Source of the DNA: Pseudobdellovibrionaceae bacterium
Lineage (GTDB): Bacteria > Bdellovibrionota > Bdellovibrionia > Bdellovibrionales > Bdellovibrionaceae
NCBI GenBank assembly: GCA_039810425.1
Contig: JBDHWW010000036.1
Location: forward strand, 1-32,073
DNA: 32,073 nucleotides
Direction: 5' to 3'
The notes beneath the pieces were generated by a model that had not been told where the DNA came from, did not search any database, and saw only the letters and a program-made list of their open reading frames with translations. Position 1 is the first letter of the stretch. Each line of letters begins with the position of its first letter. Shown here piece by piece: positions 3,266-5,135 of the stretch. A program made the position numbers and the translations under genes.

Positions 3266-4465
3266 TCACGACACCTTTTTGAGTCGGGTTTGTTGATTCA
3301 TCAACTGGTGAATCATTTGAATGCCCTCTTCTTGAAGGGCGTAGCCAAGATAATATTTTTCGCAAACTAGAACGCTGTTGCCGAGAGCCTTCGCAATCAG
3401 GGAGATGGATACCCCTGAATTAAGCAGGTGAACGGCATAGCTGTGACGGCAGTCGTGAGTCTTAAGATTTTGTTTTTCGCTCTCTTTGGGAAATGTCAGA
3501 CGACCCGCTTTTTTAATCAGTCGACTGTATTCAATGTCCCTCAGTTTTTCCTTAGTGGCCCGGTCAAGGTCGGCCCATGCTTGGACTCTTTGAAAATTAT
3601 TTTGAACGACGTAGGCGACTCGTTCTTTTCCAGTTTTCGTGGATGTGACTTTTTTGGAGTCTTTCAGCATTTGAGAGTAAACGGCTAACTGATTGCCGTC
3701 TAAGAGGTTAAACTGTCGGCCTGTCTTGATGTCTTTTTGCCGCTTCCCAAAAAGAGCAAAGGCTTCGCCAGTGCGTAGTCCTGTATAAAATAATGTGAAG
3801 AAAAGATTTTTGATGTCTTCTTTGAATTCTAAAAACTCCGTAGGGATTTCTAAGTTTCCAACGAGATTCAAAAATTCCGATTCCGTGAAGATGGTCGGCA
3901 CTTCGTTGTATTCGGCGGCTTCGAGCCTTTCACGGCGACCGATGAAGCCAAGCAGTGAGTTAAGACGAGAGCAAACCCGACGGTGAATGTTATTACGGTC
4001 AATTTTGTTGACCGCTTTTTGAAGTTCTTTGCGAGTGGCGGTTTTAAGGGAAAGGTTCTCACGGTCAATAACTAAAACGGCACGGGTGAAGCCCTGTTCA
4101 TGTCCCTTGGGGTTTACGATTTTTCGGTCTTCAATTCGTTCAGCCACGAAGTCGGCAAGGATTTTTTGATTATCAATGTGTTTAACGAGCCTGACTTTTC
4201 CATCTCTGATTTGTTGGCTTTTGTGAACCTCTGAGCGGATTTCTTTTGCGAGTCTTAAAAGTTCATCTCGCTTGGTTTCTGTCTGTTTGGATTTTTCCCA
4301 GTCGTGATTGAGGGCCTTGATGCGGTCGTTAGTGATAGTCTCAGCTTTTTTCGTGCCGTCCTTGTAGTGGACGACCTTTAGAATGGCAAAAGTTCCACGA
4401 CCCTTAAAGTCAGGATATTTGATAGTAAAATTGATTCTTTGAATGGCATTCGTCATCTCCGTCAT
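3266..4465 (-). CDS. Tyrosine recombinase / integrase (~399 aa)
   Basis: YTGLRTGEA (Arg), TKTG (Lys), HDCRHSYA (HxxR), LGNS, EKYY (Tyr). Start moved to ATG 4465 because the longer ORF overlaps the tRNA. Confidence 0.9.
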   Translation of the reverse strand: MTEMTNAIQRINFTIKYPDFKGRGTFAILKVVHYKDGTKKAETITNDRIKALNHDWEKSKQTETKRDELLRLAKEIRSEVHKSQQIRDGKVRLVKHIDNQKILADFVAERIEDRKIVNPKGHEQGFTRAVLVIDRENLSLKTATRKELQKAVNKIDRNNIHRRVCSRLNSLLGFIGRRERLEAAEYNEVPTIFTESEFLNLVGNLEIPTEFLEFKEDIKNLFFTLFYTGLRTGEAFALFGKRQKDIKTGRQFNLLDGNQLAVYSQMLKDSKKVTSTKTGKERVAYVVQNNFQRVQAWADLDRATKEKLRDIEYSRLIKKAGRLTFPKESEKQNLKTHDCRHSYAVHLLNSGVSISLIAKALGNSVLVCEKYYLGYALQEEGIQMIHQLMNQQTRLKKVS

Positions 4466-4616
4466 TTTCGGTATTTCCCTAAAGTTTCTGAACGAGACGA
4501 ATGGACGAAAGGCGATGCCGTCGTCGTTTTTGTTCAGTTTAAAATTTAGGTGAATACGAAGATTTAAAAAGTAATTGTTTAGAAGTTTTAAATGTTGCGA
4601 ACCTTCGGTTCGACAA

Positions 4617-4972
4617 TGGTGGCCCCGGGGAGAATCGAACTCCCACGCCCTTGCGGGCACTGGATTTTCTTACCACTCTGGTTTTCACCAGCTCACTGAT
4701 ACTTTGAGGTTCAGGGAGTTTGTGGTCTGGACTATGCCTTGACCGTGAAGCCTTACGGCTTGTTAGGTCCCGCTCGTCTAGTCTCTACACCTTCCGAAGA
4801 GATTTCTCTCTAAGGCTTGGCTCGGCATTAGCAATCTCATTAAAGAGATAAGCCTTCACCGAATTTGGGCGGTTCTACTCCGAGGGTTTCCCCAAGGGCA
4901 CTCAAGTTATGCTGACTTTTTATGAGGTCAGCGGTCTGAGTCCAGCGCGTCTACCAATTCCACCACAGGGCC
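4617..4972 (-). tRNA. tRNA-Leu(CAA), intron-containing; exons 4938-4972 and 4617-4668, mature length 87 nt
   Basis: Acceptor stem GGCCCTG/CGGGGCC plus A-CCA; D arm GTGGAATTGGTAGACGC; anticodon stem CTGGA/TCCAG with loop CTC^AAAA; long variable arm GCCC-GCAA-GGGC; T arm GGGAG-TTCGATT-CTCCC. Confidence 0.95.
4669..4937 (-). ncRNA. Group I intron (IC3-like, 269 nt, no homing endonuclease ORF) between tRNA positions 34 and 35
   Basis: Core motifs AAAUUCGGUGAA (P4), AAUGCCGAGCCAAG (P4/P6), GAAGGUGUAGAGACUAGACG (P6/P7), AAGGCAUAGUCC (P7); P3 CCGCCC/GAGCGG; GAAA tetraloops in P2 and P9; terminal G. Closely resembles the Azoarcus tRNA-Ile intron core as I recall it. Confidence 0.95.
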
Positions 4973-5135
4973 GTTGTGAAAAGTGAAATACGTTCTAATG
5001 GAAATAGGCCGCTTCGGACAAGTGGTTTTTCACAGTTCATGAATCTATTGCGCACTGAGTTAGTTTCTGTGGCGGTCGGTGTTTTTCGAGAATATACTCC
5101 CGGAGCTTCAAAACAACAAATTTTGGGAGAGTTTC

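Follow-up and report, generated by a model that had tools for sequence, protein, structure and literature searches.

The window, that is, the whole stretch of 32,073 nucleotides analysed here, carries on its reverse strand a tRNA-Leu(CAA) gene whose anticodon loop is interrupted by a 269-nt group I intron. Our reading, to which we give a probability of about 0.75 from sequence comparisons, is that this intron is a working IC3-type ribozyme of the Leu.3Cg class, brought to its place by an integrase element. The textbook mark of the 5' splice site of a group I intron is a U.G wobble pair; here the site holds a C-G pair, and no shifted register yields U.G.

When introns are allowed, ARAGORN finds the gene at c[4617,4972], with the intron after exon base 35. 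The 5' exon (35 nt; 4938-4972, minus strand) ends with C34 at 4938, which is position -1 of the 5' splice site; the IC3-like intron covers 4669-4937 (minus) and closes with a G at 4669; the 3' exon (52 nt; 4617-4668, minus) holds the long variable arm and an encoded CCA. The preliminary description had recognized two tRNA-Leu halves 269 nt apart and the terminal G, and had stated that only these junctions give both a CAA loop and a G-ended intron; both statements hold, and the ARAGORN run with introns that it proposed returns this very gene. The junctions 4938/4937 and 4669/4668 are correct, as shifting the cut makes plain: one base toward the 3' side leaves the tRNA unchanged but makes the intron end in A, while one base toward the 5' side produces a GAA loop and, again, an intron ending in A. 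Among 30 related loci ARAGORN called 19 Leu(CAA) genes without an intron (the remainder being 7 genes with an intron and 4 loci without a tRNA call), and 6 of the 19 have exactly the sequence of the spliced product of 87 nt; in 5 of 13 intron-bearing genes the joined exons are the same as the common allele that lacks the intron. Directly after the CCA lies a 24-base hairpin-like insert (4593-4616, minus), which is also present in locus L261 and is absent from L005, L163, L165 and L166.

Such a gene easily escapes default annotation, as had been expected. ARAGORN without its intron option reports no tRNA gene in the window, and an Rfam scan at the default cut-off gives no match to the intron there. 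The proposed search with covariance models had a mixed outcome: Intron_gpI (RF00028) does match 4719-4918 (minus), with 30.3 bits and an E-value of 1.2e-5, but this score is below the gathering score of 50; nine related introns obtain 24-48 bits against the same group I model, all under this cut-off. Because default annotation misses these genes, the genomes that carry them appear to lack Leu(CAA). Folding of 4945-4669 gives z = -4.33, and none of 200 shuffles folds as well. Runs of ARAGORN at low score returned mostly false split genes and were set aside.

The full ribozyme core that had been claimed is there, and all of its helices can be placed: P2, P3, P4-P6, P7 with a G-C guanosine site, P8, P9.0 and a last hairpin capped by GAAA, with P3 to P9 forming a group I core that includes the P3/P7 pseudoknot. 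The internal guide sequence (4900-4906, minus) pairs, from 4906 to 4900, with exon bases 31-34 and intron bases +1 and +2, giving in order A-U, C-G, U-A, C34-G, A-U and G.U; the G that faces C34 in Watson-Crick fashion is at 4903. The last two pairs, A+1-U and G+2.U, are the P1 extension, and the same two U can form P10 with the 3' exon; P10, P9.0 and the G at 4669 make up a group I 3' end. The 5' strand of P3 is followed by P4, J4/5 (GAA), P5 and J5/4 (AAU) within 4822-4872 (minus). The 5' strand of P7, with its guanosine-site G at 4783, and the 3' strand of P3 occupy 4770-4785 (minus), and J8/7, the 3' strand of P7, with the guanosine-site C at 4730, and the 5' strand of P9.0 occupy 4722-4741 (minus). 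P3 contains one C.A mismatch in 16 of the 17 introns of the window's clade, and a lineage-specific extra hairpin (4911-4932, minus) is found in loop L1. There is no homing endonuclease ORF, no frame of at least 80 aa lying within the 269 nt; the introns of genome relatives measure 254-280 nt. The layout (compact, with P2 and an IC3-type core, and without P5abc or a large P7.1 insert) fits subgroup IC3, as judged without a subgroup-specific model, and in the tree the intron groups among the 34/35 introns of Leu(UAA), which Williams cites as IC3. The intron is, as had been described, a compact IC3-like one at position 34/35 of tRNA-Leu(CAA).

How, then, should the C-G pair be regarded? It marks a known class of exceptions, so that it bars the label Leu.3Ug but not that of group I intron. 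A survey that raised the classes of bacterial tRNA introns from 4 to 21 lists 72 Leu.3Cg introns with a Watson-Crick C:G pair, from Proteobacteria in the taxonomy of 2017, and says that their splicing needs testing (Williams 2020, 10.1101/2020.01.27.920355). By site, -1 base and pair, the features used for the assignment, the window intron is a member of Leu.3Cg, and it would act as the Leu(UAA) IC3 intron does, minus the wobble. The class is known, and the pairing of intron and host tRNA, put forward as possibly new, is already in print; the preliminary description had the intron and its site right and overlooked both the C-G pair and the adjoining integrase. In the literature searched, which included few subscription journals, the name Leu.3Cg was found only in that survey, and among the papers listed on C-G splice sites no splicing test of the class was found. 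Later surveys may cover this class as well as the D-loop site discussed below. Hur and Waring are said to have described natural C-G introns in fungal mitochondria in 1995. In the available part of PMC11915505, C occupies position -1 in 15 tmRNA introns, where it is paired with A, and the available part of PMC3984707 does not contain the term CAA.

For comparison, 210 unique introns at 34/35 were gathered, here called C-type or U-type after the base at position 34: 13 C-type and 8 U-type from genomes, 100 C-type from metagenomes (at least 120 matches, 110 of them complete among the matches listed), and 88 U-type and one C-type from viral scans. After removal of seven (one not ending in G, six longer than 330 nt), 113 C-type and 90 U-type introns were left. 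Because the guide and the P4-J4/5 motif were set by the scan pattern, invariance in these parts is partly circular; the P3 pairing, P6, P7 and P9.0 lay outside the pattern. The C34-G pair is present in all 113 C-type introns among the matches listed, a count partly forced by the pattern for the 100 metagenome introns, and in 13 of 13 genome introns found by BLAST. Terminal G is kept in 113 of 114 unique C-type introns among the matches listed, and the A-U pairs of P10 and all six pairs of P7 in 113 of 113. Two of the P7 pairs are swapped on both sides, being C-G and U-A in the window's clade (17 introns) and G-C and C-G in a distant group (96 among the matches listed). Across 15 close relatives identity is 95-99.7% in the core segments and 31-76% in the variable peripheral ones, intron positions 3-32 in the L1 region standing at 76%. 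This contrast is the pattern to be expected of a ribozyme under selection and, with the compensatory P7 pairs, it argues that the intron splices.

Within P1, the clearest class-linked feature of these alignments is G+2.U, seen in 102 of 113 C-type introns (among the matches listed) vs 7 of 90 U-type; after thinning, G stands at +2 in 23 of 29 C-type introns, among the matches listed, vs 4 of 32 U-type. Does it compensate for the C-G pair? The C-G pair inactivates the Tetrahymena intron according to Williams 2020 (10.1101/2020.01.27.920355), and in the available part of PMC1891724 it raises undocking of P1 in Tetrahymena ~80-fold and makes the adjacent pair ninefold stiffer, with the suggestion that activity benefits from a weak pair on that side; compensation by G+2.U is therefore plausible. 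The C-G pair would probably dock less well than U-G; what might make it tolerable is that P1 is held in place by the tRNA stem and that the weak G+2.U lies beside the site. G+2 may equally be inherited by shared ancestry, since a single origin of the C-type is not rejected after eight rows are dropped from the tree. With all 69 thinned rows a single C-type clade is rejected (p-AU 1.6e-60); without the eight (seven long branches and a single U-type intron that falls inside the distant C group) it is not (p-AU 0.144), and a claim of two independent origins of the C-G type was given up on this account. A compensating change in the wobble receptor was also sought and none was found: J4/5 is GAA in all rows, as the pattern forces it to be, and the first base of J5/4 varies in the distant C-type group only. 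The receptor that would dock P1 (J4/5 GAA, J5/4 AAU) looks unchanged from that of U-type introns. Three U-type introns of viral contigs (L340, L342 and L380) are nested in the distant C-type group and lack G at +2; they likely record a move back from CAA to UAA.

As for splicing, the pre-tRNA would be made from the native promoter, the guide would pair with exon bases 31-34, and a free guanosine bound in P7 would attack after C34; the terminal G would then occupy the site, and the exons would join to give the loop CU-CAA-AA. We consider it quite probable that this occurs accurately in vivo. RNA data consist of contigs from 4 of the 23 listed RNA runs, from four studies and all of other strains. 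Contigs in these four sets span the unspliced form of close relatives, and no spliced joint is found among them, contigs of this kind being unable to show short mature tRNAs and possibly derived from DNA. One unspliced contig, of depth 195, continues into sequence that by eye matches the spacer of the element, and another, with the 5' exon and no intron, was discarded as the gene of another organism, its anticodon stem being different. Indirect support for splicing comes also from the intact exons and from the need for the tRNA: among Leu codons UUG is used most (28.8% of 40,666 counted; long ORFs, first 60 contigs out of 149), and 11 of the 13 intron-positive genomes have no intron-less CAA match; G195 has two, which may be incomplete. 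Leu(UAA) tRNA is present in carrier genomes and could read UUG by wobble, so that essentiality does not force the splicing of Leu(CAA). In addition, the assembly is without tRNAs for Asn, Asp, Glu and Lys, and with a tRNA set this incomplete a second copy of Leu(CAA) could be unassembled.

Two other readings of the intron deserve attention here. It may splice poorly or not by itself, either because a host factor is needed or because it is a near-silent recent passenger covered by Leu(UAA). The UAA isoacceptor is indeed present, docking is weakened by C-G in Tetrahymena (available part of PMC1891724), and unspliced precursors appear in RNA libraries, one at depth 195; however, such contigs can show neither the mature tRNA nor the RNA level and may be DNA, and a dead sequence does not fit the core-to-periphery contrast and the compensatory P7 changes; we find poor splicing distinctly improbable. 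Protein-assisted splicing is compatible with all of the results. Could C34 instead become U by deamination at the precursor stage, which would bring back the wobble and give a mature tRNA that reads as Leu(UAA)? This would explain why the wobble receptor is unchanged (J4/5 GAA with J5/4 AAU or AAC in 17 of 17 introns of the window's clade), but the exons do not differ from those of normal CAA genes that lack an intron, Leu(UAA) has a gene of its own, the RNA-library contigs that cover 4938 (from other strains) have no listed change from C to U there, and we know of no such bacterial enzyme; editing of this sort is hardly credible.

The surroundings of the gene bear on how the intron arrived. 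Its upstream region (4978-5048, minus) is native, with 82-86% identity to genomes G005 and G001, and together with an outer-membrane gene it matches intron-less relatives of the same genus; it is likely the tRNA promoter, and a sigma-70 scan made no call upstream of tRNA-Leu(CAA). On the other side come an element-derived flank (4463-4592, minus) and an open frame of 398 aa for a tyrosine integrase (3266-4462, minus; PF00589, E 3e-8), the DNA from 4592 into the integrase being 71-83% identical to the loci of four relatives. The tRNA gene is directly upstream of the integrase gene, which is the adjacency by which a tRNA-integrated island is recognized. Integrase homologues, 74-88% identical, are directly downstream of the intron-bearing tRNA in G003, G118, G123 and G126, and a homologue occurs in 6 of the 13 intron-positive genomes. 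Three of those four relatives display a fuller layout, made of the host 5' half, 174 nt, the complete intron-bearing tRNA and the integrase. Where enough flank is present, 3 of 14 close relatives have a 5' stump that ends at the anticodon loop, at a distance of 174 nt upstream, and 12 of 65 loci of the distant C-type group have stumps 187-196 nt upstream; none of 62 U-type loci, mostly viral, has one upstream, the counts for the distant group and for the U-type being among the matches listed. Five loci have 3' stumps starting at the same anticodon loop. In G126 the order is intron tRNA, integrase and, 9.9 kb away, a 3' stump; in G002 the intron gene sits at the native promoter, the integrase is absent, and the far arm with its 3' stump is kept, 86-88% identical to that of G126. 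The present assembly, whose contig ends 4.6 kb downstream, yielded neither a 5' nor a 3' stump of Leu(CAA). A similar stump layout at L024 has an intron-less spare tRNA gene, and spare genes of this kind mean that the element does not require the intron. The G126 element, of ~10 kb, also encodes an alternative-type valine-tRNA ligase (L430 1978-4557; NF000540 above the cut-off).

These layouts make it probable that the intron came with an integrative element that carries a replacement tRNA. A tyrosine-integrase element would cut the host Leu(CAA) in its 7-base anticodon loop and bring a complete replacement tRNA gene; in the window's genome the 5' stump and spacer would then have been lost, the simplest route being recombination between the 5' halves, which are identical; after this collapse the intron-bearing gene would occupy the native locus and be followed by the integrase. 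The main competitor is a jump from Leu(UAA) to the near-identical Leu(CAA) site, independent of any element and by reverse splicing or an endonuclease acting in trans, the integrase being merely a common neighbour of tRNA genes. One guide sequence fits both targets, U-type introns exist in the same genomes, 7 of 13 carriers are without a close integrase homologue, and a site switch must have occurred at least once. Yet in the tree the CAA intron lies far from the UAA intron of the same genome, the order of stump, spacer, full gene and integrase recurs in two distant C-type groups, and G002 retains the element's far arm despite having lost the integrase, which makes such a jump unlikely in our view. 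If arrival on the element is accepted, what would the intron do for it? One tentative idea, against which we would put the odds, is that it shields the spare tRNA gene from the element's own integrase, breaking the integrase target in DNA, with splicing restoring the tRNA in RNA; the C-type would then be natural, efficient ribozymes free of the wobble. Such a shield, if true, would explain why a handicapped C-G ribozyme is kept, and also why an unrelated intron is found in the D-loop of the same tRNA, in the same layout, in two other genomes.

This D-loop intron is a different group I intron, 212 nt long (43.8 bits in Rfam), with U.G in P1 and a terminal G, and on its removal ARAGORN calls tRNA-Leu(CAA). 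It is located at L031 ~620-918 (G057:C200, same order), at L436 (G023:C49, cut by the contig end) and at the viral loci L438, L450 and L460, which amounts to 2 of 301 genomes of the order and 3 of 36 viral pattern matches with a group I core. Both G057 and G023 have an upstream 5' stump, and downstream in G057 there is an integrase of 43% identity. The D-loop intron may be the newer lead, and its site may be unreported, given that Williams 2020 covered the anticodon loop only.

The named matches of RbfA are nearly all Bdellovibrio, Bdellovibrionaceae or Bdellovibrionales, and the host is Bdellovibrionaceae-like, in agreement with the Bdellovibrionota-like genome first supposed. The proposed survey of relatives found the C-type intron in 12 of 182 genomes of the family, a patchy distribution, and in none of the 44 genomes of its largest genus. 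In a phylum sample of 401 genomes it occurs once outside the family, with 94% identity, which points to recent transfer.

Other introns and tRNA fragments were seen along the way. The window's genome (G000) has a second intron, U-type and 272 nt long, in a tRNA-Leu(UAA) gene (C28 19335-21238, L034) that follows a host Leu(UAA) 5' stump and an integrase in which there is one internal stop. Contig C121 holds a Leu(UAA) gene without an intron; with 70% GC vs 49% for the genome it is a likely contaminant and was left out. C121, C136 and C145 are small, tRNA-carrying contigs of 64-70% GC vs 49% and are likely foreign. Should C121 be contamination, group I splicing is needed for both of the tRNAs that serve UUA/UUG codons. 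A 17-base fragment of a tRNA-Leu D-arm (C37 28784-28800), ~140 bases upstream of tRNA-Leu(GAG), is possibly another stump. In PLSDB, 1253 plasmid records, mostly from Enterobacteriaceae, match the intron at ~70%, and L473 (2464-2760) and L474 are intact U-type Leu(UAA) intron genes that are absent from the plasmid feature tables. Agrobacterium phage Atu_ph07 has an unannotated Leu(UAA) gene with a 278-nt intron (L475 528-889), and in viral contigs the U-type pattern gave at least 120 matches vs 1 for the C-type pattern.

What is added here to a class already described is the contrast in conservation, the compensatory P7 pairs and a likely integrase-element vehicle for C-type introns. A large natural family without the U.G wobble offers a cheap experiment on how a ribozyme chooses its cut site, and the window copy is short and protein-free, with identical intron-less alleles and with U-type controls, one of them in the same genome. 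The link with integrase elements is also a possible route by which tRNA introns without endonucleases move between bacteria.

Several known systems can be set beside this one. With the Leu.3Cg introns it shares the Leu tRNA, loop position 3 (34/35), the C at -1 paired with a G of P1 and the terminal G; the 17 introns of the window's clade differ in two P7 pairs from 96 metagenome C-type introns (among the matches listed), and integrases and stumps, both seen here, are not mentioned in the paper that describes the class (Williams 2020). The Leu.3Ug introns, that is, the IC3 introns of cyanobacterial and plastid tRNA-Leu(UAA), have the same insertion site, guide sequence and core, the nearest U-type introns being 72-75% identical and from viral contigs (among the matches listed); they differ in having U34.G instead of C34-G and usually A or U instead of G at +2, and the window intron has the added L1 hairpin. 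Another relative in kind is the IC3 ribozyme of Azoarcus pre-tRNA-Ile, whose core motifs are probably similar. It is also a compact tRNA intron with a guanosine-initiated mechanism of two steps (available part of PMC4201826), but it resides in another tRNA at another site and uses a G.U wobble. Closest to the element are the Islander-type tRNA islands, which, in the part of PMC4383910 available, likewise combine a tyrosine integrase, a crossover in the anticodon loop and displaced tRNA fragments that mark the ends; the word 'intron' is absent from that text. There the split gene is restored from a partial copy, whereas in the relatives described here the host gene is left as two stumps and a complete second gene is supplied, often with an intron.
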